From assembly GCA_965219085.1 (NCBI GenBank), contig OZ244720.1, forward strand, positions 480,001-544,000: DNA of 64,000 bases. Reading direction: 5' to 3'. This document shows positions 9,910 to 42,510 of the stretch, piece after piece (position 1 is the stretch's first letter; each line of letters begins with the position of its first letter). This DNA is from Dehalococcoidia bacterium (GTDB taxonomy: Bacteria; Chloroflexota; Dehalococcoidia; UBA2979). The position numbers and the translations under genes are program-made. The notes under the pieces were generated by a model that saw only the letters and a program-made list of their open reading frames with translations, was not told the origin of the DNA and searched no databases.

Positions 9910-11403
9910 ATCGCCAGCACATACTCACCGGTAGCCGTCGACCACCAACTCGACCCCATCTTCAACCCGCGAGGGGTCGCCGTCGTCGGCGTTTCGACGC
10001 GGCCAGGGCCCGACGGGCGCATGGGGGGCATCTTCCTCAACGCGCTGCTCGAACAGGGGTACCAGCACGAGCACGGCCTCTACGCCGTGAACCCGAAGAT
10101 GACCGAAGTGCGGGGCGTCACCTGCTACCCGAGCCTCCTCGCCTGCCCCGACCCGGTTGACCACGTCATCTCGCAGATCCCCTCCGAGGGGCTCCCCGAG
10201 TTGGTCGAGCAGTGCATCGCGAAGGGCGTGCGCTCGCTCCACTCGTTCACGGCGGGCCTCGCCGAGACGGGCGACCCGCAGCTCGTCGCGCAGGAGCGCG
10301 ATATGGTGCAGCGCGCCAACGCTGCCGGGATGCGCCTGATCGGCCCGAACTGCATGGGGCTGTACGTCCCCGGCGTGGGCCTCGGCTTCAACCCGCGCTC
10401 GCCGAGTGAGCCGGGCAACGTGTTCTTGCTCTCGCAGTCGGGCGCCAACGCCGGCGGGATCATCGACGGCCTCGGGCGGCGCGGGCTGCGCTTCTCCAAG
10501 GGCGTCTCCTACGGCAATGCCGCCGACCTCAAGTCGCACGATTTCCTCGACTACGCGCTGCACGACCCGCAGACCGAGCTCATCGTCGCCTACGTCGAGG
10601 GGCCTCGTAACGGCCGCGCGTTCTTCGATGCCCTCAAGAAGCTGGCGCGCGTGAAGCCGACGATCGTGCTCAAGGGCGGCATCACCGACGATGGCGCGCG
10701 CGCCGCGAACTCGCACACCGGCTCGCTCGCCGGCTCCATCGACGTCTTCGACGCCGTCTGCCGGCAGGCCGGGGCGGTGCGCGCGCGCACGCTCGAGGAC
10801 CTGCTCGACCTCGCCGTGGCCATGACCACGGACATGCGCTACCTGCTGGGCAACAAGGTCACGCTCGTCGGCGCGGGCGGCGGCTTCGCCGTGCTCTCCA
10901 CCGACCAGATGGCCATGGAGGGCCTCACGGTGCCGTGGCTGCCCGAAGCGACCCAGGAGCAACTGCGGGAGATCATCCCCATCGCCGGGACGAGCATCCG
11001 CAACCCCGTCGACGCCAACTTCGGGCGCGACCACCCGATGGACTTCAGCAGCGACACCGGCCTCACGAGGCGCGTGTTCCAGTCGATCGCCGCGGCGCAC
11101 TCGACCGACCTCGTGCTCACGACCGTCGGTACGCGCTGGTACCCCGGCCAGGACCACTCGGACGCGGCACGCCAGGAGCAGCTCTCGCTGACCGCCGAGG
11201 AACTCTCGCTCATCTCGCGCGAACACCAGGTGCCGATGGCGCTGATCCTGCGCGAGGCGAGGCTGGAGGACGCGGGCGATTTCGTGCACGACCACGGCGT
11301 CGCGTCGTTCCCGTCGATCGAGCGCGCGGCGCGCGCCGCCGCGACGATCCTCGAGTGGAAGCGACGGCGCGAGGGGTTGCCGGACTTCTTCACGTACAAC
11401 TAG
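9910..11403 (+). CDS. Acyl-CoA synthetase (NDP-forming) alpha subunit / CoA-binding protein; probable ATC start
   Basis: In-frame LDPIFNPRGVAVVGVS lies upstream of the ORF-track Met; GPNCMG, SQSG, SYGNAAD, SHTGSLAG (phospho-His), NPVD. Confidence 0.88.
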   Translation: MASTYSPVAVDHQLDPIFNPRGVAVVGVSTRPGPDGRMGGIFLNALLEQGYQHEHGLYAVNPKMTEVRGVTCYPSLLACPDPVDHVISQIPSEGLPELVEQCIAKGVRSLHSFTAGLAETGDPQLVAQERDMVQRANAAGMRLIGPNCMGLYVPGVGLGFNPRSPSEPGNVFLLSQSGANAGGIIDGLGRRGLRFSKGVSYGNAADLKSHDFLDYALHDPQTELIVAYVEGPRNGRAFFDALKKLARVKPTIVLKGGITDDGARAANSHTGSLAGSIDVFDAVCRQAGAVRARTLEDLLDLAVAMTTDMRYLLGNKVTLVGAGGGFAVLSTDQMAMEGLTVPWLPEATQEQLREIIPIAGTSIRNPVDANFGRDHPMDFSSDTGLTRRVFQSIAAAHSTDLVLTTVGTRWYPGQDHSDAARQEQLSLTAEELSLISREHQVPMALILREARLEDAGDFVHDHGVASFPSIERAARAAATILEWKRRREGLPDFFTYN

Positions 11404-16888: not shown

Positions 16889-18112
16889 CTACCAGGGCTC
16901 GTCCATCTGCGCGAACCCGCCGTGGCTCGCCTGGGCCACGGCGATCGGAGCGCGGTACGGGCGTGTCTGGCCCGTCGCGCGGCCCACGAGCAGCCACACC
17001 ATCCCCACGGCGGCGAGGGCTCCAGAGGCCCAGTACACCATCGGGATGTCGAACCAGCTGGCGACGATGCCGAGCACGATGCCGCCGGCCAGCCCGCTCA
17101 CGTCCCACGCGAGCTGCAGCACGGCCGTCGCGCGGCCTCGCGCGGTGTCGGCGACGCGGTCGATGGCGAGCGCCAGCAGCGCGGTGTGCGCCCCGGCGAG
17201 CCCGGCGCCGGCCATGAACCCCGCGGCGATCAGCATCAGCGGGCCGTGGGCGACCGCCAGCATCCACATCGACGCGACTGTGGCCACGAGTCCGGGCAGC
17301 GCGACCGGGACACGACCGACGCGGTCGGACGCTGCTCCGGCGACCGGCCGCACGAGCGTGGAGGCGATGCCGACGAGGAGGAAGAACAGCCCGACGTTGC
17401 CGAGATCGCGCTCCTCGCCGAGCAGCGGGAGGAAGGTGCTCGTCGCGGCGAACGAGAACGTGACGGTCATGAAGACGGTCATCGGGAACAGCGCGGGTCT
17501 CGGGAAGAGCGTGGCGCCGCCCTCGACGCCGACGCTGGAGCTCGGCGGCTCGTGCACGGGCTGCACGACCAGCAAGGTCAGGCCCGCGGTCGCTGCGGCG
17601 ATGATGAAGACCATGTCGAAGCCCCACGCCGCCGCGACGGCGACGCCGATCGCCGGCGGGAACATCTGCGCGATGCCGGTCGCCATGCCGAACATCCCGA
17701 CGCCCTCGCCGCGCCTCGACAGCGGCGACAGCTCGGCGATCATCGAGGCGGACGCCGTCGGGCACAGCGCCATGCCGACGCCCTGTACGATCCGCAGCAG
17801 GAACAGCGAGATGATGTCGTGGGAGAGCGTCATGAGCAGCATCGACGCCACTATCGCCAGCAGCCCGATGCGCATGATCCGCTTGCGCTGTCCGCGGTCG
17901 CTCCAGCGGCCCGCGAACGGCCGCAGTACGAGCGGCACGACGTTGAACCCGCCGACAATGATGCCGATCTGCCACTTCGCCCCGCCGATCTCGTCGATGT
18001 AGTCCGGCAGGACCGAGAGCAGGTAGAAGAAGCTGGCGAAGAAGCCAACGGTGCCCAGCAACGTCAGCGCGAAGTCGAACGTCCAGAGGCGGGGCCGGGG
18101 TGACTGGCTCAC
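16889..18112 (-). CDS. MFS transporter
   Basis: About 12 TM segments, GRWSDRGQRK and GAASDRVGR motif A. Confidence 0.9.
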   Translation of the reverse strand: MSQSPRPRLWTFDFALTLLGTVGFFASFFYLLSVLPDYIDEIGGAKWQIGIIVGGFNVVPLVLRPFAGRWSDRGQRKRIMRIGLLAIVASMLLMTLSHDIISLFLLRIVQGVGMALCPTASASMIAELSPLSRRGEGVGMFGMATGIAQMFPPAIGVAVAAAWGFDMVFIIAAATAGLTLLVVQPVHEPPSSSVGVEGGATLFPRPALFPMTVFMTVTFSFAATSTFLPLLGEERDLGNVGLFFLLVGIASTLVRPVAGAASDRVGRVPVALPGLVATVASMWMLAVAHGPLMLIAAGFMAGAGLAGAHTALLALAIDRVADTARGRATAVLQLAWDVSGLAGGIVLGIVASWFDIPMVYWASGALAAVGMVWLLVGRATGQTRPYRAPIAVAQASHGGFAQMDEPW

Positions 18113-31358: not shown

Positions 31359-31753
31359 TCTTCGTTGACACGAACGTCTTCATGTACGCGGTCGGGGGCG
31401 CGCATCCTCTGAGGGATCCGGCGCGAGCGTTCTTCCGCGATGCCCATCGGGAACGGGCGCCCCTGTGTACCTCAGCGGAGGTGCTGCGGGAGCTCATGCA
31501 CGTCTACCTGCGCGCTGGGCGGGCTGAGGCGCTCGATGCAGCCTCGTCGCTGGTTGCGAGGGCCGGGCTCGATATCTGGGCCCTTGAACCCGACGACGTA
31601 GAACTGGCCCGCCAGCTTATGGACAGCTATCCCGGTCTCGAGCCGCGCGATCTCTGCCATCTCGCCAGTTGCCGCAGGCGAGGGGTGAGCGAGATCAGGA
31701 CATTCGACCGCGCCCTCGGCGCCGCAGTGTCCGGGCTTGCAGCCGGAAGCTGA
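31355..31753 (+). CDS. vapC: VapC PIN-domain toxin
   Basis: IFVDTNVFMY, EVLRE, RDLCHLA, TFDR. Confidence 0.88.
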   Translation: MIFVDTNVFMYAVGGAHPLRDPARAFFRDAHRERAPLCTSAEVLRELMHVYLRAGRAEALDAASSLVARAGLDIWALEPDDVELARQLMDSYPGLEPRDLCHLASCRRRGVSEIRTFDRALGAAVSGLAAGS

Positions 31754-31778
31754 AGCTTCGAAGGCACAATCCTCGCGG

Positions 31779-32528
31779 CTAGTGGACGAACATGCCGCCG
31801 TTGACGTTGAACACCGAACCCGTGATGTAGGTGCCCTCGGTCACGATGTAGCGCACGAGGCTCGCGACCTCCTCGGGCCGTCCAAGCCGCCCCAGCAGGA
31901 TCTCGCCCCTGAGGTTCTCACGCTGCTGGTCGTTGAGCCCCGACAGCATGTCCGTCTCGATGAAGCCCGGCGCGATCGCGTTGACGTGGATGTTGAAGCG
32001 CGCGCCCTCGCGCGCGAGCCCGCGCACGAAGCCGATCGCCGCCTCCTTCGAGGTGCCGTAGTTGACCAGCCCGAGGCGGCCCGTCTCGCCGACGATCGAG
32101 GCGATGCAGACCACGTGCCCGCCGCCGGCCTCGCCCATCGCCCGCCAGACCGGGCTCGTCACGTTGTAGAGCCCGTTGACGTTGGTATCGATGACCGTGT
32201 GCCACTCCTCGGGCGTCATGCGCGCGACCGTGCGGTCGGCGGTGGTGCCGGCGTTGTTGATCAGCACGCGCACCGGCCCCAGGTCGTTCACGACCGCGTC
32301 GACCATCGCCTGGCACTGCTCGAGGTCGGAGACGTCGGCCTGGTAGGCGCGCGCCGTGCCGCCCGCGCCCTCGATCTCGCCGACGACCCCCGCGGCGGCT
32401 TCGGCGTTGGCGACGTAGTTGACGGCGACCGCGGCGCCCTGGCCCGCGAGTTCGAGCGCGATCGCGCGCCCGATGCCCCTCGATCCGCCCGTTACCAGTG
32501 CGACCTGTCCGTCCAGCGCTCCAGCCAT
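31779..32528 (-). CDS. SDR oxidoreductase (FabG/PhaB-like)
   Basis: TGGSRGIG, NNAG, YGTSK, APGFIETDM, NVNGG. Confidence 0.92.
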   Translation of the reverse strand: MAGALDGQVALVTGGSRGIGRAIALELAGQGAAVAVNYVANAEAAAGVVGEIEGAGGTARAYQADVSDLEQCQAMVDAVVNDLGPVRVLINNAGTTADRTVARMTPEEWHTVIDTNVNGLYNVTSPVWRAMGEAGGGHVVCIASIVGETGRLGLVNYGTSKEAAIGFVRGLAREGARFNIHVNAIAPGFIETDMLSGLNDQQRENLRGEILLGRLGRPEEVASLVRYIVTEGTYITGSVFNVNGGMFVH

Positions 32529-32766
32529 GTGTTGCCCTCCTCGGTGTCGTGTTGCGTTGCCGCGCGCACCGTACCGCACCGGGGCCGCTGGCGGGGAGTG
32601 GGGAGGGCCGCCACCACCTGACGACGCGAGGCCGTATCCTGCGTGCACGGCCCGGGACCGATGCCCGTTCCGGACCGGCCTCCGAGCGCCCGGCGTGCGT
32701 CCCGTTGCGCGAAGGCCGCCCCTGGGGCCGCGCGACCGCCCGCGGCGGCGGTGAGTTGGAGCCTGC

Positions 32767-34203
32767 ATGCTCTCCCGCTCGTTCGTCGTGCTGTGGATTG
32801 CGATGGCCGTTGCGGTCATGGGCATCGCCATGGTCTCGCCGTTGCTCCCCGTGTTCGTACGCGAGGAGCTGCACGGCCCCGAGTTTGCCGTAGCGCTCTC
32901 GTTCTCGGCGATCGCGATCAGCCAGATCGCCACGTCGCCATTCGTGGGGCGGTTCGCCGACAAGTTCGGGCCGAAGCCGTTCATCGTGCTCGGCTTCTTC
33001 ATCTACGCCGCGGGCGGCGTCGGCTTCATCTTCGCGCAGACGTGGGAGATGGTGATCGTCTTCCGCGTCGTCTCCGGTGTCGGCGCCGCCTCCATGTTCC
33101 CGACGACGATGGCATACGTCGGCCGGCTCGCTCCGCCTGGGTTCGAGGGCCGCTACATGGGCGCGTTCTCGATCTCGTGGATCGCGGGGTTTGGCATCGG
33201 GCCGCTGTTTGGTGGCACCATTCGCGACTTCGTCTCCTCGGACGCCGCGTTCGCGACGATGTCATTCATGCTCTTCGCGGTCGGCGTGGCGGTGTTCCTG
33301 CTGCTGCCCAAGGGCCGGCCCGGTGCCGGCTCCGGGCGCGAGGACGACGAGGAGGTCCTCGAGCCGGGACTGCCGATGATCGAGGTGCTCAAGCGCCCGA
33401 TCGTCCACGCGGCCATCGGTGGGCACATGGTCGTCTCGCTCGGGTGGGGCGCGGGCTTCACGTTCATCGCCGTCTACGTGGTGAGCGACGATGGCCTCGC
33501 GACGGGCAGCGCGACGTTCGCCGGCGTGCTGCTGGCCTCGCGGGCGCTGCTGACGGCGACGGCGCAACTCGTGACGGGGCCGCTCGCCGACAAGATGGAC
33601 CGCGTATTCCTGTCCGTGCTCGGCTTCGGGATCGCGGGAACCGCGCAGTTCTTCGTGCCGGACATACCCGGCGTCAGCGCCACGATCGGGATATTCGGCG
33701 GCGAACTCGTGATTGTGCCCTGGCTGCTGCTGCTCTTCGTCTTCGTGGGACTGGGCGAGGCCATCGAGTTCCCCGCGCAGCAGGCGATCTTCGTCGACGC
33801 CGGCCGCACGGTGGGTATGGGCACGATCATGGGCATCATCCAGACCGCGGGCGGGTTCGGCTTCCTCGCCGGGTCGATGTTCGGTGCGCTTGTCGTGAGC
33901 ATATGGGGGCTCGACGCGGTGTTCCGCTACGCGGGCCTCGCGATGTTCCTCGGCGGCTTCGGTTTCTGGCTGCTCATGCGGCGCGCCAAGCGCGACTTCG
34001 CGATGCTGGACGCGGCCGCCGCGGCCGACCTGCGCACGCGTTTCACGGCCAACAGGCTCGATGGCGCTCGTGCGCTGACCGGCGGCAACGGCGCGCAGCC
34101 CGACGGCGTGCAGCCCGATGGCGTCACGCACCGCGGCATGGCCGACACGCTCCAGGTGGATCGGCCACGGCAACCCGCGGTGGCGGCTGTCGACGGCGAC
34201 TGA
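32767..34203 (+). CDS. MFS transporter (DHA1/TetA-like) with extended C-terminal tail
   Basis: GRFADKFGPK motif A, IGPLFGG motif C, about 12 TM segments. Confidence 0.9.
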   Translation: MLSRSFVVLWIAMAVAVMGIAMVSPLLPVFVREELHGPEFAVALSFSAIAISQIATSPFVGRFADKFGPKPFIVLGFFIYAAGGVGFIFAQTWEMVIVFRVVSGVGAASMFPTTMAYVGRLAPPGFEGRYMGAFSISWIAGFGIGPLFGGTIRDFVSSDAAFATMSFMLFAVGVAVFLLLPKGRPGAGSGREDDEEVLEPGLPMIEVLKRPIVHAAIGGHMVVSLGWGAGFTFIAVYVVSDDGLATGSATFAGVLLASRALLTATAQLVTGPLADKMDRVFLSVLGFGIAGTAQFFVPDIPGVSATIGIFGGELVIVPWLLLLFVFVGLGEAIEFPAQQAIFVDAGRTVGMGTIMGIIQTAGGFGFLAGSMFGALVVSIWGLDAVFRYAGLAMFLGGFGFWLLMRRAKRDFAMLDAAAAADLRTRFTANRLDGARALTGGNGAQPDGVQPDGVTHRGMADTLQVDRPRQPAVAAVDGD

Positions 34204-34258
34204 GTCGCGTTCTGGCCGCGAGGTGCGCGTTAGCGCCATCCCTTGTCACACTGTCGGC

Positions 34259-35227
34259 GTGATCGGGATCGTACTCGCCAGCGACCAGGGTCTCCTGCAC
34301 GTCCTCCCCGGTGCGGACGCGGAGATGGCGCTGCCCGGCGTGCGCTGCACCTCGCTCGACTACCGCGACGGCGTCGCGATTGCAGCGGCGCCGGAGCGCG
34401 GCGTGTGGATGAACGACGGCGGCGGCTGGGAGCGGGTGTGGGAGGGCAATGCCCACGCCGTGCGCCTCGCCGGCGACGGGGTGTGCTACGCGGCCGAGAC
34501 GCCGCCGCGCCTGCACCGCTCGCGCGACGGCGGCGAGACGTGGGCCGAGCTGCCGAACGTGCCGAGCATCGTGCGGGCCCACAACGCGCGCCGTCCGGGC
34601 GCGCCCCGCAGCGAGGTCGAGATCGTCGGCATCGCGTTCCCGCAGGGGCAGCTACTGCTCGGGATGCGCGGCATGGGCACGTGGCTGTCGCGCGACGGGG
34701 GCCAGTCGTGGATGCGCGGCGATCAAATCGAGCTGTCCGCCCGCTCCGAGCCGCTGCAGGCGGTGGCCCTGGGGGAACACCTCAACGGCATCTGGGACCA
34801 CCAGGAGCGTAACGACCGCCTCTACGCGGCGTCGCGGCGCGGCTTCTTCCGCTCCGATGATGGTGGCTTCACGTGGCAGCGCACCCAGCAGGGCCTCGAC
34901 CGCTTCAACGCAAATGGTGTCGCGGTGCTCCCAGGCACGCCCGACGCGCTGCTGCTCTCGATCGCGTCGAGGGGTGTCGATGCGGAGGACGGGGCCGACG
35001 CGGCGCTGTTCCGCTCGGTCAACGGCGGCCTGATGTGGGATCGGGTGACGCTCGGCGACGAGGACGTGTGGCCACGGCCGCCCCTCGTGAGCGCCGTCAC
35101 CGGCGGCATGGACATGCTGTTCGCGCACGCCGGCGCGAGCATCTGGGCATCGCACGACCGGGGCGCGCGCTGGCTCCCCATCGCCGACGGGCTGCCGCCG
35201 GCGATCGCGATGGTGGCCGCGCTGTAG
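34259..35227 (+). CDS. BNR/Asp-box repeat beta-propeller protein
   Basis: Five S-x-[DN]-x-G-x-x-W Asp-boxes; GTG start 6 nt after TGnCACACT. Confidence 0.8.
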   Translation: MIGIVLASDQGLLHVLPGADAEMALPGVRCTSLDYRDGVAIAAAPERGVWMNDGGGWERVWEGNAHAVRLAGDGVCYAAETPPRLHRSRDGGETWAELPNVPSIVRAHNARRPGAPRSEVEIVGIAFPQGQLLLGMRGMGTWLSRDGGQSWMRGDQIELSARSEPLQAVALGEHLNGIWDHQERNDRLYAASRRGFFRSDDGGFTWQRTQQGLDRFNANGVAVLPGTPDALLLSIASRGVDAEDGADAALFRSVNGGLMWDRVTLGDEDVWPRPPLVSAVTGGMDMLFAHAGASIWASHDRGARWLPIADGLPPAIAMVAAL

Positions 35228-35336
35228 GAGCGTGCAACCCTGGACGGTTCCCCTTACTCTGTCCACGCTGCTCCCACGGTAGCTCCCGCCCGTCGCCGAT
35301 CCCACGGCGATCGGACGGAAGGTTGGCGATGCCCTC

Positions 35337-35681
35337 ATGACTGCATTCAACGACGCGACTGCGACAAAGGGCGACCTCCGAGAACTGGAGGCGCGGCTGG
35401 AGTCGCAGACGAAGACCGGCCTCCGGGAACTGGAGGCGCGGTTGGACTCGCAGACAAAGGCGGACCTCCGCGAACTGGAGGTCCGCCTCGAGTCTCAGAC
35501 CAGGGCGGACCTCCGCGACTCGGAGGCACGCCTTGAGTCTCATTTCCGGGACATGTTCGCGACGAAGGCCGATCTCTTCCAGATGGAGACTCGCATTACG
35601 CGCTGGGTGGTGGGTGCGGTCATGGGAAGCATCGGCGCTGCTACGGCGATTGCCTTCGCGCTTGCCCGCTTCGTCTCCTGA
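35337..35681 (+). CDS. Coiled-coil protein with C-terminal TM segment (DUF1640/CCDC90-like)
   Basis: ATKGDL...ATKADL repeats, then ITRWVVG and a TM segment. Confidence 0.8.
   Translation: MTAFNDATATKGDLRELEARLESQTKTGLRELEARLDSQTKADLRELEVRLESQTRADLRDSEARLESHFRDMFATKADLFQMETRITRWVVGAVMGSIGAATAIAFALARFVS
35364..35543 (+). repeat. Four 45-bp coding tandem repeats
   Basis: TKGDLRELEARLESQ / TKTGLRELEARLDSQ / TKADLRELEVRLESQ / TRADLRDSEARLESH. Confidence 0.9.
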
Positions 35682-35687
35682 CGGGCC

Positions 35688-36620
35688 CTACCCGCGCCCG
35701 CCCTCGAGGAACGTGCGCGGCGCCTCGATCAGCATCGCCTCGATGTCGGACGCCGGGATGCCTGCGTCGGTCAGCTTCGGGCGCAGCTCGTTCGCGATGT
35801 ACGTGAAGTCGCTCGGCGAGTCGTGCGCGCCGTGGCGGCGGAACGAGTTCTGCTCCGGCGCGTAGTCGTGCGCGAGCATGATGTGGTCCGCGCGCCCCTC
35901 GGCGCAGAGCGTGGCGATTGCCGCGATCACCTCGGACTCGATCTCCGGCCGCCAGCGGAAGTGGTCGATGGAGAGGTAGTGCCCCGCCTCGAGCACCTCC
36001 CGCAGGTACTCGACGTCGCCGGTGAAGGAGTGGCCGATGGCGACGAGGTGCGGCGCGACGCCGGTGTCGGCGAAGACGCGCATCTGCTCGCGGCCGATGG
36101 TGTACGGCCCGGTGTGGGTGGTGACGGGGACACCCGTGCGCGTTGCCGCCTCCGCGGCGCCGCGGAGGATGCGCTCCTCCTCGTTGCCGATGCCCGGCGG
36201 GTCGCTGTTCGCGACCTTGATCACGCCCGCGCGGATATCGGTGCCGCCGACGCCGACCTCGATCTCGTGCTGGAAGATGTCGGCGTACTCCACGGCGGTG
36301 GCCGTGCTCAGCGCGCGCGGGTGGTCGAGCCAGATGCCCGTGGCGACGACAACGTTGACGCCCGAGCGCTCCGAGACCGTGCGCATGAGCTCGGGCTGAC
36401 GGCCGAGGTCGGGCGTGGTCACGTCGACGATCGTGCGCACGCCGGCCTCTCGCGCCTCGATGAGTTCGGCGGTGACGTGGTCCAACTCGGCCTCGGTGTC
36501 GAAGAGCCACGGGTAGAACTCGCGCAGGCCCGCCGAGGAGACGAAGAGGTGCTCGTGCCCGTGCGTCAGGCCAAGCTGATCGCCGGGCACCGGCCCGAGC
36601 GCCGTCTGGACATCGACCAT
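35688..36620 (-). CDS. Phosphotriesterase-family amidohydrolase
   Basis: THGHEH, VDVTTPDLGR, ATG, GVIKVA, TTHT, IGHS, AHD. Confidence 0.9.
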   Translation of the reverse strand: MVDVQTALGPVPGDQLGLTHGHEHLFVSSAGLREFYPWLFDTEAELDHVTAELIEAREAGVRTIVDVTTPDLGRQPELMRTVSERSGVNVVVATGIWLDHPRALSTATAVEYADIFQHEIEVGVGGTDIRAGVIKVANSDPPGIGNEEERILRGAAEAATRTGVPVTTHTGPYTIGREQMRVFADTGVAPHLVAIGHSFTGDVEYLREVLEAGHYLSIDHFRWRPEIESEVIAAIATLCAEGRADHIMLAHDYAPEQNSFRRHGAHDSPSDFTYIANELRPKLTDAGIPASDIEAMLIEAPRTFLEGGRG

Positions 36621-36634
36621 CGCTGCCTCCTGAG

Positions 36635-38086
36635 CTACGCGCCGGAATCCGCCATGCCTGCATGCGTGAGTCGAGCGCGCCCGGCTGCCCCGGGCGCTCC
36701 GGGCGCACCGTCGAGCGAGGAGGGCGCGGATGGCGTCGACGCTGCTGCGGCCAGGGCCGCAACCGCTGCGGGAGCGGGGGCCGTGGGAGACGCGGGGACC
36801 GCCACGGGGCCGAGCGCCCTCGCGGCCTCGATCTCGTTCCAGATCGGCCGCCGCACGAGCACGACGAAGATGGCGCCGGACGCCGCGACGAAGGCGTAGA
36901 TGGTGAAGATTCCCTGGTACGTGCCCGTTTGGTCGAACACGAAGCCCGCCAGGACCGGGGCGACGATGGTGACGGGCGTCTGGAAACTGCTCGCCAGCCC
37001 TCGCAGTGTCGCGAAGCGCAGCGTGCCGAAGTAGTCGGCGATGAGCGTCATCTGCACCACGAGCCACGCGGCGTGCCCGAAGCCGAACGCGGCGTAGTAA
37101 AACGGGATGAGCCACAGCCGGCCCGGCTCGAGCTGCACGAACATCAGCATCCCGATGCCCTGGAGCAGGAAGCCGAGCGCGTAGACGCGTCGCCGCCCGA
37201 GCGCGTCGGCGATCCAGCCGGCGAAGATTCGTAGCAAGACCTGGAACGCGCCGTAGAACGCGACGACGAGCGCCGCGCTGCCGGTCGAGAACCCCGCGTG
37301 CTCCAGGTGCGGCACCTGGAGCACGACCCACGCGACGATCGCGAACGTGCCGCAGGCGTTGGCCAGCGCGAGCAGGTAGAAGGCCGGGATCCGCAGCCCG
37401 CCGCCCACCGTGAACCCGGTGAGTGTCGGCATCGCGATCGGTGCGCCCGAGGGCTCCTCGGGCGCTTCGCCGTCCGGCAGGTAGCCGTAGGGTTGCGGCC
37501 GGTTGCGCAGCAGCAGCGCGAGCGGCACGCCGAGCGTGAAGACGATCGCGGCCGCGATCAGGAGCGTCTCGCGCCAGCCGAACCAGCTCACGAACAGCGC
37601 GACGACCGGGACGACGAAGTAGCCCGCGCCGTTGCCCGCGTTGAGCACGCCCATCGCGCGGGCGCGCTTGCGATCGAACCAGTTCATGACGGCGGCGGAG
37701 AACGCCATCAGCGAGCCGATGCTGTTGCCCGTCGCCATGAGCAAGCTGGCAAGGTAGTAGACCTCGAGCGAGCGCGCCTGCGAGAAGAGCACCAGCCCGC
37801 CGCTGAGCACGATCACCCCGGCGACGGCCATCTTGCGCGGGCCCAGCTTGTCGAGCATGAAGCCGGAGATGGGCGCCACCAGTCCCTGCTCGAGGCTCCC
37901 CAGGGAGAAGCCGAGCGAGATCGCGGCGATGCTCCAGCCCAGCTCGTCCCGCATCGGGCCGATGAAGACGCCGAAGCCGAAGACGGCGATGCCGATGGTG
38001 ACGAAGTTGCTGAGGGCGCCGCCGTAGGCGATGTACCAGCCGTAGAAGAAACGTTGGCGCGGTCGGGCCGCTGCGGCGTTGGTCAT
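36635..38086 (-). CDS. MFS transporter (OFA/YhjX-like) with extended C-terminal tail
   Basis: FFYGW, LDKLGPR, RNRPQPYGYLPDG, ADYFG. Confidence 0.92.
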   Translation of the reverse strand: MTNAAAARPRQRFFYGWYIAYGGALSNFVTIGIAVFGFGVFIGPMRDELGWSIAAISLGFSLGSLEQGLVAPISGFMLDKLGPRKMAVAGVIVLSGGLVLFSQARSLEVYYLASLLMATGNSIGSLMAFSAAVMNWFDRKRARAMGVLNAGNGAGYFVVPVVALFVSWFGWRETLLIAAAIVFTLGVPLALLLRNRPQPYGYLPDGEAPEEPSGAPIAMPTLTGFTVGGGLRIPAFYLLALANACGTFAIVAWVVLQVPHLEHAGFSTGSAALVVAFYGAFQVLLRIFAGWIADALGRRRVYALGFLLQGIGMLMFVQLEPGRLWLIPFYYAAFGFGHAAWLVVQMTLIADYFGTLRFATLRGLASSFQTPVTIVAPVLAGFVFDQTGTYQGIFTIYAFVAASGAIFVVLVRRPIWNEIEAARALGPVAVPASPTAPAPAAVAALAAAASTPSAPSSLDGAPGAPGAAGRARLTHAGMADSGA

Positions 38087-38161
38087 CGGCTCTCCCTGAC
38101 GCGCGCCGTGCGCACGGCGCGCGCGCGGCCTGCGCCGAGTATAGGCGGGTCGCGAGGAGCG

Positions 38162-39664
38162 TTAGCGCTGTTGGGCCGGAACGGTGGGATTCTGGCCCAC
38201 GGGGGGGGCGTCGCCGCCGTTCGCCGATGCGGGGACAGGCCAGGCGCTCTCGCGCCACTGGACGGTCTCGGCCATGCCGGCGTGGGTGACGCCGTTCGCG
38301 TACGCGCCGTTGGCGCCGTTGGCGCCGGCGCCGTTGGTGGCAAGGGCGGCCAGCCCGTGCGGGGCGACGGGTACGGGCATCGGCGCCGCGGCCGCCGACT
38401 CGGGGAGCTCGGGCTTCTTCGCGAAGGCGAAGAAGACTCCGCCCGACAGCGCGAGGATCGCGAGGATGATGAAGCCGCGCTGGTAGGAGCCTGTGAGGTC
38501 GTAGGAGATGCCTGCCACGACTGGGCCGATGATCATGCCGGCCATCATCACCATCGACGAGAAGCCCATGATCTTGCCGAAGGACTGGCGCCCGAAGTAG
38601 TCGGCGCGCATCGCCTGGATGAGTGGACCGCGGGTGCCCATCGCAAGCCCGTTGATGACCACGAACCCGATGACCATCACGACGTTGAACGAGAACGCCA
38701 GCAACAGCATCGCAACCGTGTGCCCGCACATCGCGATGATGATGACCATACGCTTGTTGAGGCGATCTCCAAGGATGCCGCCGATGACGACCTGACCGAT
38801 GACCATAAAGGCGGTCATGAGCGCTGACATCAGCCCGAAGAACGCGAGCGAATACCCGAGGCCCAGCGTGAGGTGCGACGCGAAGTACACCATCACCGCG
38901 CCGATCACGAGCAGCGAAGAACTGTGGCCCAGCGCGATCAGCCAGAAGGCGCTGGTGCGCAACGCCTGGGTGGTGGTGAAGTTCACCTCAGGCGGTTGCT
39001 CGTCCCCGTGGCCGGGCAAGTCGCCGTCCGGGAGCATGCCGTGGTCCTCAGGACGGTGCCGTACGATCGCCGCGAGCGGGAGGCCAATGACGAGGACGAA
39101 GATGCCCGAGGCGGCTGCCATGCCGCGCCAGCCGAGACTCTCCAGTAAGGCAACGACGCCGGGTTGCACCAGGCCACCAGCGGCGAACCCGAGCGAGACC
39201 AACGCCAGCGCGAGCGCGCGCCGCTTGTTGAACCAATTAACAACCGCGACGGTAACCGGTAAGAACGAGCCGAGCACCGAACCGAGGGCGATCAACAGGT
39301 ACGCCAGGTAGAACGTCAGGATCGAGTTGATCTGGCTCAGCGCCAGGAACCCCAGCGCGAAGATCACGAGGCCCACCATCATCACCCTGCGCGGCCCGAA
39401 GCGGTCGATCGCCCAGCCCTCGATGGGACCGAGCAAGCCGCTCTCGACGCGCTGCAGGGCGAAGGCCAGGCCGAAGGTGGCTTGGCTCCAGCCGAAATCC
39501 TCCTCGAGCAGCACCACGTAGGCACCGAACGAGTGGAAGACAAGAGCCCCGTTGAAGGTGTTCACGATGAACCCGGAGCCGACGATCCACCAGCCGAAGA
39601 AGATGCGCGAGCCGCGCTCAGTCACGGCCTGCTGCTGCTCGCGGAAGTTCGTCATCGCCGTCAT
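38162..39664 (-). CDS. MFS transporter (OFA/YhjX-like) with extended C-terminal tail
   Basis: IFFGW, IDRFGPR, RHRPEDHGMLPDG, RADYFGR; start 39664 or 39655. Confidence 0.92.
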   Translation of the reverse strand: MTAMTNFREQQQAVTERGSRIFFGWWIVGSGFIVNTFNGALVFHSFGAYVVLLEEDFGWSQATFGLAFALQRVESGLLGPIEGWAIDRFGPRRVMMVGLVIFALGFLALSQINSILTFYLAYLLIALGSVLGSFLPVTVAVVNWFNKRRALALALVSLGFAAGGLVQPGVVALLESLGWRGMAAASGIFVLVIGLPLAAIVRHRPEDHGMLPDGDLPGHGDEQPPEVNFTTTQALRTSAFWLIALGHSSSLLVIGAVMVYFASHLTLGLGYSLAFFGLMSALMTAFMVIGQVVIGGILGDRLNKRMVIIIAMCGHTVAMLLLAFSFNVVMVIGFVVINGLAMGTRGPLIQAMRADYFGRQSFGKIMGFSSMVMMAGMIIGPVVAGISYDLTGSYQRGFIILAILALSGGVFFAFAKKPELPESAAAAPMPVPVAPHGLAALATNGAGANGANGAYANGVTHAGMAETVQWRESAWPVPASANGGDAPPVGQNPTVPAQQR

Positions 39665-39855
39665 GGCTGCGGTAGGTTCCTCGTCACGCCGGGTGCGGCG
39701 AAGCGCACGGATCGGTGCTGCCGGATCATCACCCCGCCACGTGATGGGCACGGGACACGAAGGTGCGTTCGGCACCCGAGAAGCTAAGCATGCGCGAGCA
39801 GGAGTGCGGTGTCCAGCACCTCACGTGAGGGGAAGCGATTCTCCGCCCAGGATCG

Positions 39856-42510
39856 CTACGCCGAGGCCACCGATTCGTCGTCGCGAGGCCTCCACGGCCC
39901 GCCGTTCGCGAGGTCGGCGGTGTGCTGCCCCGCCTCGGGCGCTGGCGAGGCCGGCGCCCACGGCGTGGCGCTCATGCGGAACGGCGCGCCGGGCCAGCGG
40001 ATGCGGCCGACGCCCGGCTGCTCGGCGTCCGCCCAGTAGTCGAGCGCCTCGAGGTGCGGGTCGCGCAGCATCGCGCCCGTCGGGTTGACCGGCGCGGCCG
40101 GGATGCCGCGGCGCTGTGCCTCCTTGCAGAACGTGTCGGCGTCGTAGCGGCCGGCGAGGCTGTCGACGTACGCCTGGACCTCGTCGTCGTACTCCTTGCG
40201 CACCATCGAGGAGGCCCGGAAGCGCTCCTCGAGCACCCCCTCGGCGCCGGTCTCCTCGTGGATCCATGAGGCGAGGGCGTCCCAGTGGCCGACGGTGAGC
40301 GCGAGCAGGCAGACGAGGCGGTCGCTGCACGTGTAGTAGCCGTATGGACTGGCGCCGAGCGCGCTGCTGCCGGTGCGTCGGCGCGGGTTGGCGTCCTCGA
40401 TCAGCGCCGGCAGGCCGGTCCCGCCCTGTGCCGTCGACACGAGCACCTCGTGGGCCGAGACATCGGCCAGCTGCCCGCGACCGGTGTGTGTGCGCGCGTA
40501 GAGCGCGGCGAGGGCGGCGATGGCGCCGACCTCGCCGACGAAGTAGTCGGCGAGCAGCGCGCCGGGGATGAGCGGCCGCCGGTCGGGGTACCCGGTGAGC
40601 TGCAGGATGCCGCTCAGCGCCCACAGCGTGAGGTCGTCGGCGGCCCACGTGCGGTACGGCCCCGTCAGTCCGAACGGCGTGACAGCGACCGTCGAGAGCT
40701 CGGGGTTCGCCGCGCGCGCGGCCTCGGCGATGGCGACCGCGTCCTCGTCGGCGGTGTAGACGAGGTCGGCCGTTGCGCACAGCTCCTCGAACGCTCTGGC
40801 GTCGGCGGGGTCGCCGAGCGAGAGCGTGACGGAGCGCTTGCCGCCGTCCATGTAGAGCTGCAGCAGGCTGCGCCCGCCCATGAGCGGCCCGCCCATGAGC
40901 GGCCCGCCCGTGAACGGCCCGTCCGCACGGATCGAGGCCCCCTCGGGCGGTTCGACGCGCACGACGTCCGCCCCGAGGTGCGCGAGCAGCCGCGCGCCGT
41001 ACGCGCTCATCCCGTCGCTGAGGTCGACCACGCGCATGCCGTGCAGCGGGCCGTGGTCGAAGGTTCGCGGCTCGCGGCCCCGGCCGGCGATCGCCATCAG
41101 GTGGCGCGTCCGCGAATCGCGCATGTCGCGGATGAGCTGCGCCGCATTGAAGGCGGGAGGCTGCTTTGGCATGTCGGCCTCGCGGCTCATGCGCAACAGC
41201 GGGAGCGCCCAGTCGAAGTACGGCCGCTCCAGCGTCGCATCGCCCGGCGGAGCGTCCGCGGGCGGGCTCACCGCGCCGGCCTCTGCCAGCTCCTGAATGC
41301 GGTCGACGCTGAGGTTGGCGAGGTCGATGAGGATGTCTTCGTTGTGCTCGGCAAGGGCCGGGGAGGCGTGCTCGTGGCGCACAGGGGTGTCCGTGAGGTG
41401 GATCGGGAGGCCGTCGATGAGGTCCCCGTCGAGCCAGCGGTGGCGCACCAGCCGCCAGAAGCGGCGAGCGCGTAGCTGCGGGTCGGCGAGGTGGTCGAGG
41501 TGGTCCTGCACGGGCGCGGCAGCGACGCCCGCGGCCTGTAGCACGAACGTCGCCTCCTCGCGCGTGCGGCGGGCGCACCACTCCGCGAGGGCGGCTTCGA
41601 GCTCCTCCTCGTGCGCGCGGCGGCCCTCGAAAGTCTGGAAGCGGGGATCGTTGGCCCACTCGGGGCGTCCGACCGCGCGCGCGAGCGCGCGCCACTCGTC
41701 GTCGTTGCGGGCGGAGATGGCGACCCAGCGGTCGTCGTCGATGGTGGGGAAGACGCCGCGCGGCGCCGCGCCGGGGCTGCGGTTACCGCTGCGGTTCGGC
41801 TCCTCGCCGCCGAGCGCGACCTGCCCGATGTACGGCCCGAGGCAGGCGACGGCGGACTCGAACTGCGAGATGTCGATCCACTGCCCGGGGCCGCCGCGTT
41901 CACGGTGCAGCAGCGCGCTGATGATCGCCGTCACCGCGTGGTAGCCCGCGATGTAGTCGGGCAGTGGCACGGGCGTCATCGCCGGCTGGCGGTCGGGGTC
42001 GCCCGTCAGGTAGTCGAGGCCGGAGAACGAGGAGAGGTTGGGGCCCCACGACTTGTAGTCGCGGTACGGGCCCTCGCCGCTGCCGTAGCCCGGCATGCTC
42101 ACGTAGACGATGTCCGGGTTCACCGCGCGCACGTGCTCGTAGTCGATCCGCAGCGAGTTGATGGCGGGCACGCTGAAGTTCGTGAGGAACACGTCGCTCT
42201 GCTCGATGAGGCGGTCGAGGAGCTCACGCCCCTCGGGCGACTTGAGCTCGAGGCCGACGCCGCGCTTCTGCGCGTTGAACGTGTTGTTCCCGGCGAGCAT
42301 GTCGCCGCCTGCGAGGCCCACGTCCGGCGGCGCCCATGCGGGCGCGCGCGCGCCCATCGCGGCGCTGCGCGAGCGTGACTCGACCTTGATCACGTCGGCG
42401 CCGAGGTGCGCGAGGTAGCGCCCGGCCAGCGGCCCGGCGATCGCCACGCCGCACTCGACGACGCGCACCCCTTCGAGCGCTCGTGGCGGGTCGGTTGCTG
42501 GTGCGGTCAT
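39856..42510 (-). CDS. CoA-transferase family III, two fused domains
   Basis: LAHLGADVIKVES...PLPDY and LAHLGADVVRVEP...LADY. Confidence 0.92.
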   Translation of the reverse strand: MTAPATDPPRALEGVRVVECGVAIAGPLAGRYLAHLGADVIKVESRSRSAAMGARAPAWAPPDVGLAGGDMLAGNNTFNAQKRGVGLELKSPEGRELLDRLIEQSDVFLTNFSVPAINSLRIDYEHVRAVNPDIVYVSMPGYGSGEGPYRDYKSWGPNLSSFSGLDYLTGDPDRQPAMTPVPLPDYIAGYHAVTAIISALLHRERGGPGQWIDISQFESAVACLGPYIGQVALGGEEPNRSGNRSPGAAPRGVFPTIDDDRWVAISARNDDEWRALARAVGRPEWANDPRFQTFEGRRAHEEELEAALAEWCARRTREEATFVLQAAGVAAAPVQDHLDHLADPQLRARRFWRLVRHRWLDGDLIDGLPIHLTDTPVRHEHASPALAEHNEDILIDLANLSVDRIQELAEAGAVSPPADAPPGDATLERPYFDWALPLLRMSREADMPKQPPAFNAAQLIRDMRDSRTRHLMAIAGRGREPRTFDHGPLHGMRVVDLSDGMSAYGARLLAHLGADVVRVEPPEGASIRADGPFTGGPLMGGPLMGGRSLLQLYMDGGKRSVTLSLGDPADARAFEELCATADLVYTADEDAVAIAEAARAANPELSTVAVTPFGLTGPYRTWAADDLTLWALSGILQLTGYPDRRPLIPGALLADYFVGEVGAIAALAALYARTHTGRGQLADVSAHEVLVSTAQGGTGLPALIEDANPRRRTGSSALGASPYGYYTCSDRLVCLLALTVGHWDALASWIHEETGAEGVLEERFRASSMVRKEYDDEVQAYVDSLAGRYDADTFCKEAQRRGIPAAPVNPTGAMLRDPHLEALDYWADAEQPGVGRIRWPGAPFRMSATPWAPASPAPEAGQHTADLANGGPWRPRDDESVASA

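Follow-up and report, generated by a model that had tools for sequence, protein, structure and literature searches.

A short T/S-H-x-G motif in the tails and loops of MFS transporters, confined to one clade of a Dehalococcoidia genus

In PMC8154325, IIA-Glc is described as one soluble protein that restrains several major facilitator superfamily (MFS) transporters, LacY and MelB, and the tail motifs of yeast Rgt2 and Snf3 are described as hubs for signalling factors. Here we describe a five-residue motif, [TS]-H-x-G-[MLIF], in the N-tails, central loops and C-tails of MFS transporters of a Dehalococcoidia bacterium (Chloroflexota). It was found in a stretch of 64,000 nucleotides (contig OZ244720.1, positions 480,001 to 544,000; hereafter the window) and followed through the source genome, a single contig of 3.31 Mb with 69.8% GC. 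The arrangement that we propose for it resembles inducer exclusion and LacS in that one cytoplasmic input would control MFS carriers from the inner side, in LacS by way of a C-terminal appendage. In contrast to LacS, the appendage here is a five-residue motif in a disordered tether and not a folded IIA domain, and Pfam found MFS-type families only, with no IIA domain fusion, in the three window proteins described first below. In contrast to LacY, MelB and LacS, HPr was not found in any of the five genomes tested and the motif marks 19 transporters across the MFS tree. Because HPr was not found in those five genomes, we conclude that the motif system is not a member of the MFS carriers controlled by the phosphotransferase system. 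The likeness to Rgt2 and Snf3 lies in a long disordered MFS tail that is thought, in that source, to recruit partners; these two proteins differ in being eukaryotic, a pair of paralogues and marked in the C-tail only, and they are likened here by description, not by sequence.

Docking by short linear motifs (SLiMs) is known in bacteria from the clamp-binding motif, the SSB C-terminus, the GpsB-binding motif of penicillin-binding proteins, and encapsulin and microcompartment targeting peptides. These share with the present motif that they are short, position-tolerant and gained separately by many clients of one reader, which in our case is a proposed one. They differ in having other sequences, a distribution that is phylum-wide or wider and a known reader, whereas the present motif does not extend beyond a single transporter superfamily and a part of one genus.

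The original prediction, made from the window alone, described a T-H-x-G-M-A-[DE] motif in the disordered C-tails of three MFS transporters from two subfamilies. All three peptides are present in frame in their genes, the first and third agree at 9 of 12 residues, and the division into DHA1-like and OFA-like proteins fits the best NCBIfam matches, all of which lie below the cut-off (TIGR00880, DHA1-like, for MFS1; NF049980, SfMCT, or TIGR00890, OFA, for MFS2 and MFS3). A fourth carrier in the window had been missed. Family-library typing was limited to window proteins, and the labels MFS_3-like and DHA2-like for proteins elsewhere are our own. The carriers and their motif sites are:

32767..34203, plus strand: MFS1, a DHA1-like MFS transporter of 478 amino acids with a disordered C-tail (open reading frame, Pfam MFS_1, NCBIfam)
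34126..34140, plus strand: THRGM motif core in the MFS1 tail; position x is D, R or Y among orthologues
34120-34155, plus strand: 12-residue peptide of the MFS1 tail, GVTHRGMADTLQ, in frame
36635..38086, minus strand: MFS2, an SfMCT/OFA-like MFS transporter of 483 amino acids (open reading frame, Pfam, NCBIfam)
36653..36667, minus strand: THAGM motif core in the MFS2 tail, 5 residues ahead of the stop
36647-36667, minus strand: MFS2 tail peptide THAGMAD, in frame
38162..39664, minus strand: MFS3, an SfMCT/OFA-like MFS transporter of 500 amino acids (gene call, AlphaFold, NCBIfam)
38273..38287, minus strand: THAGM motif core (T460-M464) of MFS3, downstream of an Asn-Gly-Ala-rich linker
38258-38293, minus strand: 12-residue peptide of the MFS3 tail, GVTHAGMAETVQ, in frame
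16889..18112, minus strand: fourth window carrier, an MFS transporter of 407 amino acids (gene call, MFS profile set, family-library typing)
16913..16927, minus strand: SHGGF motif core of the fourth carrier; the orthologue in G014, another carrier genome, reads SHSGF
Genome position 3209074, outside the window: an N-tail motif site

Genome-wide counts of the motif rest on 2702 genes that we called ourselves, on helix numbers estimated crudely from hydropathy, and on an iterated profile that identified 46 MFS-like proteins. The strict motif [TS]-H-x-G-[MLIF] occurs at 20 sites in 19 of these 46 proteins (about 40%), and a relaxed form that allows Ala at +3 occurs at 24 sites in 23 proteins, 22 of which have one site each. 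Among the strict sites, His and Gly are present in all 20, the first residue is T in 13 and S in 7, the preceding residue is hydrophobic (L, V, M or F) in 15, position x varies (G, A, D, R, E or S), and position +4 is M in 12, L in 5, I in 2 and F in 1. Thus, the core of the predicted motif stood but its A-[DE] ending is merely a local variant, since A at +5 and D or E at +6 are each found in only 9 of 20 sites. The longer form TH.GMA[DE] matched 4 times in 168 proteins with multiple transmembrane (TM) helices, compared with 0.0 in shuffles. For [TS]H.GM there were 12 matches in the multi-TM proteins (0.23 expected from shuffles) and 2 in 2341 soluble proteins (5.6 expected). Enrichment was confined to MFS proteins: the strict motif was found 20 times in 11,873 extramembrane residues of the 46 MFS proteins (0.49 expected), but not at all in 31,403 extramembrane residues of 124 other proteins with at least five helices (0.97 expected). 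With a crude disorder filter, the relaxed pattern matched once in 25,802 disordered residues of non-MFS proteins, the MFS proteins having 828 such residues. One further match, THDAMH at genome position 391311, lies inside a folded ABC ATPase and was set aside as a coincidence. Unbiased pattern discovery in MFS tails ranked TH.GM first, ahead of the inherited loop motif of the OFA-like group, whereas TH.GM was not among the top 28 patterns discovered in G006, a sister genome.

The predicted C-tail location holds for 12 strict sites; 6 others lie in N-tails and 2 in central loops. The N-tail, central loop and C-tail of MFS proteins all face the cytoplasm. Close paralogues hold the motif at different places among these three, and this freedom of position fits a tethered tag better than an element of the fold. 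Inspection of seven N-tail cases showed a candidate start codon upstream of the motif in each, and the upstream start is kept in four compared with G014; the Met of these N-tail copies therefore need not be the initiator. In a FastTree phylogeny of 44 MFS proteins, whose long branches leave the deep structure unsure, the 23 carriers require 10 changes, at least 7 of them forced by strong branches. An AlphaFold2 model of MFS3 (91 sequences, 8 rows with the motif) has a confident 12-helix core followed by residues 443-500 with a predicted local distance difference test score (pLDDT) below 50; the tail has a pLDDT of 29-41 and no secondary structure. Disorder of the other carriers' segments was judged by composition alone. 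The residue at +3 swaps between G and A in syntenic copies (THVGMH in G003, THVAMH in the source genome). In genome G000, unrelated tail-to-tail MFS genes (2764719-2767361) bear THVAMH and THGGMH about 100 bp apart, and six of the seven carrier genomes retain this gene pair, G or A varying at +3.

A second tail feature, Asn-Gly-[AG], occurs in the window at 34083-34094 (plus strand) and 38300-38345 (minus strand) and in carrier tails genome-wide. Asn residues of disordered segments are followed by Gly in 16 of 20 cases in carriers, 1 of 5 in non-carrier MFS proteins and 63 of 193 in other proteins. The Asn-Gly-[AG] columns are invariant in orthologues, and the feature is also present in tails of motif-free homologues. 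Asn-Gly is prone to deamidation, and the feature could be a timer or a turn.

A motif repeated in many genes might reflect copying of DNA rather than selection on the peptide. When a loose DNA form of the motif was sought in and around 46 genes, 20 matches were in frame and 5 were not (2 off-frame, 2 on the opposite strand, 1 outside an open reading frame). Codon use was synonymously varied (T acg 12 and acc 5; S tcg 6 and agc 1; H cac 22 and cat 2; G ggc 15 and ggg 5), which bears out the predicted acg/acc difference. Mean flank identity over 276 site pairs was 20.6 of 60 nt, equal to the null of 20.6, so that likeness stops at the flanks and a recent DNA duplication, an intragenic repeat or a mobile insert was rejected as the source. 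The claim that the linkers are unrelated does not fully hold for MFS1 and MFS3, whose tails are 75% alike over 56 nt (the longest inverted repeat in 32500-40000) and whose linkers both contain Asn-Gly-Ala. In addition, the flanks of 7 of the 276 pairs agree at 30 or more of 60 nt, compared with 1.2% in the null; given these pairs and the MFS1/MFS3 likeness, a few motif copies may descend from old tail copying. Among 8 MFS3 and 6 MFS1 orthologues, all four fixed tail columns (T, H, G and M) are invariant, whereas among the other tail columns only 12 of 79 and 13 of 50, respectively, are, so that the four residues stay fixed while their flanks drift. The conclusion that selection acts on a lineage-specific peptide motif is well supported by these observations.

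Four of the five properties by which a SLiM is recognised are present: a short pattern of few positions enriched over composition, location in disordered regions, separate gain in unrelated places (three positions in the protein, 10 tree changes) and an island of conservation at the level of the peptide (orthologue, frame and codon tests). The fifth is a partner domain, for which ten candidates did not track the carrier clade. We conclude that the motif is real and selected, that it marks about 40% of the clade's MFS transporters, and that it is undescribed in the literature searched; no published description was found in a title-level search of a library with few subscription journals, and the original prediction had not recognised the motif from any described MFS family either.

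The motif is confined to one clade, 7 of 19 genomes of the genus. A codon-level pattern gave 20 matches in the source genome, 15 of them in multi-TM genes. Across the 19 genomes, it gave 16-21 matches in 7 and 2-10 in the other 12, with 2-8 for a reversed control. Matches were inspected individually in the source genome, G014 and G006, and fell in MFS-type frames in 9 of 20 cases in G014 and 0 of 8 in G006. A stricter pattern applied to 301 genomes of the class, including the unpublished genome G252 (one match), on which no claim rests, gave 8-10 matches in the four sampled carriers and 0-7 in the remaining 297, with the highest non-carrier count (7) coming from a 6.8 Mb genome; because this pattern assumes G or C at third positions, low-GC genomes are under-read. 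The variant T-H-x-[GA]-M-H had 2-4 matches in every one of the 7 carrier genomes; the remaining 12 of the genus had none and 80 genomes of other genera at most one each, the ABC ATPase string THDAMH accounting for one match here and in five other carriers. In the MFS1 tree, the 7 carrier genomes form one clade (support 91/84, stem 0.11) with G006 as sister, and the MFS3 tree groups the 8 carriers in one clade (support 97, stem 0.087), which is nested within a set of 17 close homologues that lack the motif.

Orthologues in G014 (0.3 Mb compared) kept the motif in 6 of 7 cases. In contrast, the strict motif was found in none of 116 multi-TM frames of the whole main contig of G006, where the tails of orthologues are mostly shorter, and untagged orthologues from sister lineages are 60-87% identical to the carriers. 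The sequence downstream of 11 G006 orthologues showed no decayed motif; one G006 orthologue reads LTAGG where the source genome reads LTHGG, as would suit a precursor and a decayed copy alike. A single gain of the motif on the short stem of the clade is the simplest reading of these comparisons. G006 has drifted strongly toward Ala, Arg, Gly and Pro, has trimmed MFS tails, and has lost genes that are kept across most of the genus (GPP34, a second ClpS, an APH kinase and a cupin). Because G006 has changed so much in composition and gene content, the motif may instead have been gained earlier and then lost from this genome. Certain MFS3 homologues of other lineages (P0026, P0027, P0034 and P0044) have another repeated motif in their tails, R-D-[YF]-M, with two copies in many of them; across 99 genomes of the family this pattern matched at most once per genome and was never multi-copy.

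Our preferred explanation, to which we assign a probability of roughly 0.55, is that the motif is a tag at which a single regulator, shared by the MFS transporters and located in the cytoplasm, docks. A single cytoplasmic protein would read [TS]-H-x-G-[MLIF] in the flexible inner tails or central loop, with T/S-H-x-G forming a turn and the last residue sitting in a hydrophobic pocket of the reader. The reader would turn the tagged carriers down, or route them, as a group, with an outcome resembling inducer exclusion, that is, a single brake on organic-solute carriers. The docking interpretation is based on the fixed four-position pattern, the swappable hydrophobic end, the varied tether lengths and the occurrence of mostly one motif per protein, and because M, L, I and F are interchangeable at +4, a hydrophobic pocket fits better than a sulphur ligand. 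Restriction to MFS proteins may reflect function, as these appear by eye to be the bulk of the secondary organic-solute carriers, or may mean that the reader also needs the MFS core.

Several observations weigh against a shared reader. No strict motif is present in 27 of the 46 MFS proteins, the G014 orthologue of a DHA2-like gene at genome position 561783 lacks it, and the restriction to MFS proteins could instead make the MFS core itself the target. Moreover, none of the ten candidate readers, writers and partners tracks the 7-genome clade, so that the predicted lineage-specific control system is upheld as to lineage but not as to control, no partner, enzyme or metal site having been found. 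GPP34/GOLPH3-like proteins occur in 18 of 19 genus genomes, ClpS in 19 of 19, and an APH-type kinase and a cupin each in 17 of 19; SPFH/flotillin (in equal copy number in carriers and G009) and PP2C were present in five of five genomes. HPr was rejected on the count given above, and Methyltransf_16 (PF10294, METTL18-type) was over the cut-off in 0 of 19. Hanks Ser/Thr kinases were found in 7 of 19 but in only 3 of the 7 carriers (genomes 90-94% complete). The beta-propeller encoded next to MFS1 (34259-35227) belongs to a family present in 91 of 99 family genomes; it is a second paralogue, 44% identical to the first in a genome search, and this paralogue occurs in G006 as well as in the 7 carriers. 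Complex prediction with a 34-residue MFS3 tail scored 0.02, which is evidence neither for nor against. Gene-by-gene comparison covered one full motif-negative genome (G006) and 0.3 Mb of one other carrier (G014). Subtraction of G006 from the source genome left 374 candidates dominated by G006's own losses, and because G006 lost many genes kept by the genus, the subtraction is weak; the G014 filter reached 0.3 Mb only, 41 of 253 shared genes.

Alternatively, the motif His, or its T/S, could be a site of covalent modification, as the invariance of both residues would allow, although we consider this unlikely. The ATP-grasp beta subunit of acyl-CoA synthetases phosphorylates a His in the swinging loop of the alpha subunits. 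In a specific version of this explanation, the shared beta subunit of the ADP-forming enzymes would phosphorylate the tail His and so tie transport to the ATP/ADP ratio. The genome has one stand-alone ATP-grasp-like gene, and S-H-T-G loops are found in two of its six alpha-type paralogues (SHTGSLAG, window 10021-11403; SHTGALAG); these loops resemble the motif in a [ST]-H-x-G core within a mobile segment. However, the loop (SHTG[SA]LAG) is part of an enzyme and places its hydrophobic residue one position later (+5 rather than +4), and the beta subunit is also present, at 83% identity, in motif-negative G006. The gene at 10021-11403 (plus strand) is one of six stand-alone alpha-type genes, four of which lack the S-H-T-G loop. 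Precedents for modification appear in two sources: His-phosphorylated HPr regulates LacS transport by phosphorylating the IIA domain of LacS (PMC8154325), and His245 of human RPL3, in THRGL, is methylated by METTL18, a THAGL mutant being about 90% methylated (PMC8034639). THRGL matches [TS]-H-x-G-[ML] exactly, but it belongs to a eukaryotic ribosomal protein and the likeness is probably a coincidence. Neither the synthetase loop nor the METTL18 look-alike passes the co-occurrence test, and the failure to find HPr in five of five genomes, a METTL18-type family over the cut-off in any of the 19 or Hanks kinases in 4 of 7 carriers also counts against a modifying enzyme.

The motif might instead act in cis, as a tethered plug or pH switch that binds the MFS core of the same protein on its cytoplasmic face, the His acting as a proton sensor. 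This would explain the restriction to MFS proteins directly; all three positions can reach the cytoplasmic face, and GLUT1 arrests facing inward once its C-tail is removed, according to PMC8154325. Nevertheless, the MFS3 tail is modelled without structure (from an alignment with only 8 of 91 motif rows), no matching convergent core change beyond compositional drift was seen in 18 carrier/G006 pairs, cores separated by long branches of the MFS tree would all have to accommodate one exact motif, and it would be unclear why one clade alone needs it, and we therefore regard cis action as quite improbable. Still more doubtful is a metal site that links or inhibits transporters when cytoplasmic metal rises. 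H-x-x-M is a Cu(I)/Ag(I)-type binding pattern; 12 of the 20 strict sites fit it, and THVAMH, THGGMH and THAALH have a further His. On the other hand, such a site requires Met or a second ligand, and the replacement of Met by L, I or F in 8 of 20 weakens the metal site that had been suggested with the original prediction, and the fixed T/S at 0 and G/A at +3 would be superfluous for H-x-x-M. Finally, the idea that the motif is a neutral remnant of DNA copying from tail to tail, or a signal at the nucleic-acid level, could draw on the 56-nt MFS1/MFS3 likeness and the 7 high-identity pairs, but is largely refuted, and highly improbable, in view of the null-level mean flanks, the 20 to 5 in-frame excess, the synonymous codon variety and the four invariant residues described above.

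Three other genes lie among the window carriers:

34259..35227, plus strand: BNR/Vps10-like beta-propeller without an obvious signal peptide
35337-35681, plus strand: 114-residue protein built of 15-residue tandem repeats, spaced 45 nt apart in the DNA, and ending in a hydrophobic helix
35688..36620, minus strand: phosphotriesterase-family hydrolase, 14 bp downstream of MFS2, given for context only

The 114-residue protein had no NCBIfam match, and many small genes resembling it occur across the genome. A promoter and terminator scan of 31500-40000 gave no signal above shuffles. Homologues bear the names Dehalococcoidia or Chloroflexota in their sources.

With the shared reader as the preferred explanation of the tag, we tentatively suggest a broader possibility, that a whole post-translational transporter regulon arose within one genus. 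On one branch of only about 0.09-0.11 substitutions per site, some twenty unrelated MFS carriers may each have gained the same His tag, to be recognised by a new reader or by a new enzyme that modifies His, while neighbouring lineages would use other tail codes, such as R-D-[YF]-M. If so, a bacterium would have been caught rewiring its motifs in the manner of eukaryotes, and an undescribed protein that reads peptides would stand behind the change. That about 40% of MFS carriers are tagged, yet no HPr was found in the genomes tested, points to a new control route. The motif is a ready bait peptide, for which the untagged sister-lineage orthologues are natural negative controls, and it offers a bacterial test case for how fast a linear motif spreads across many clients once a reader exists.

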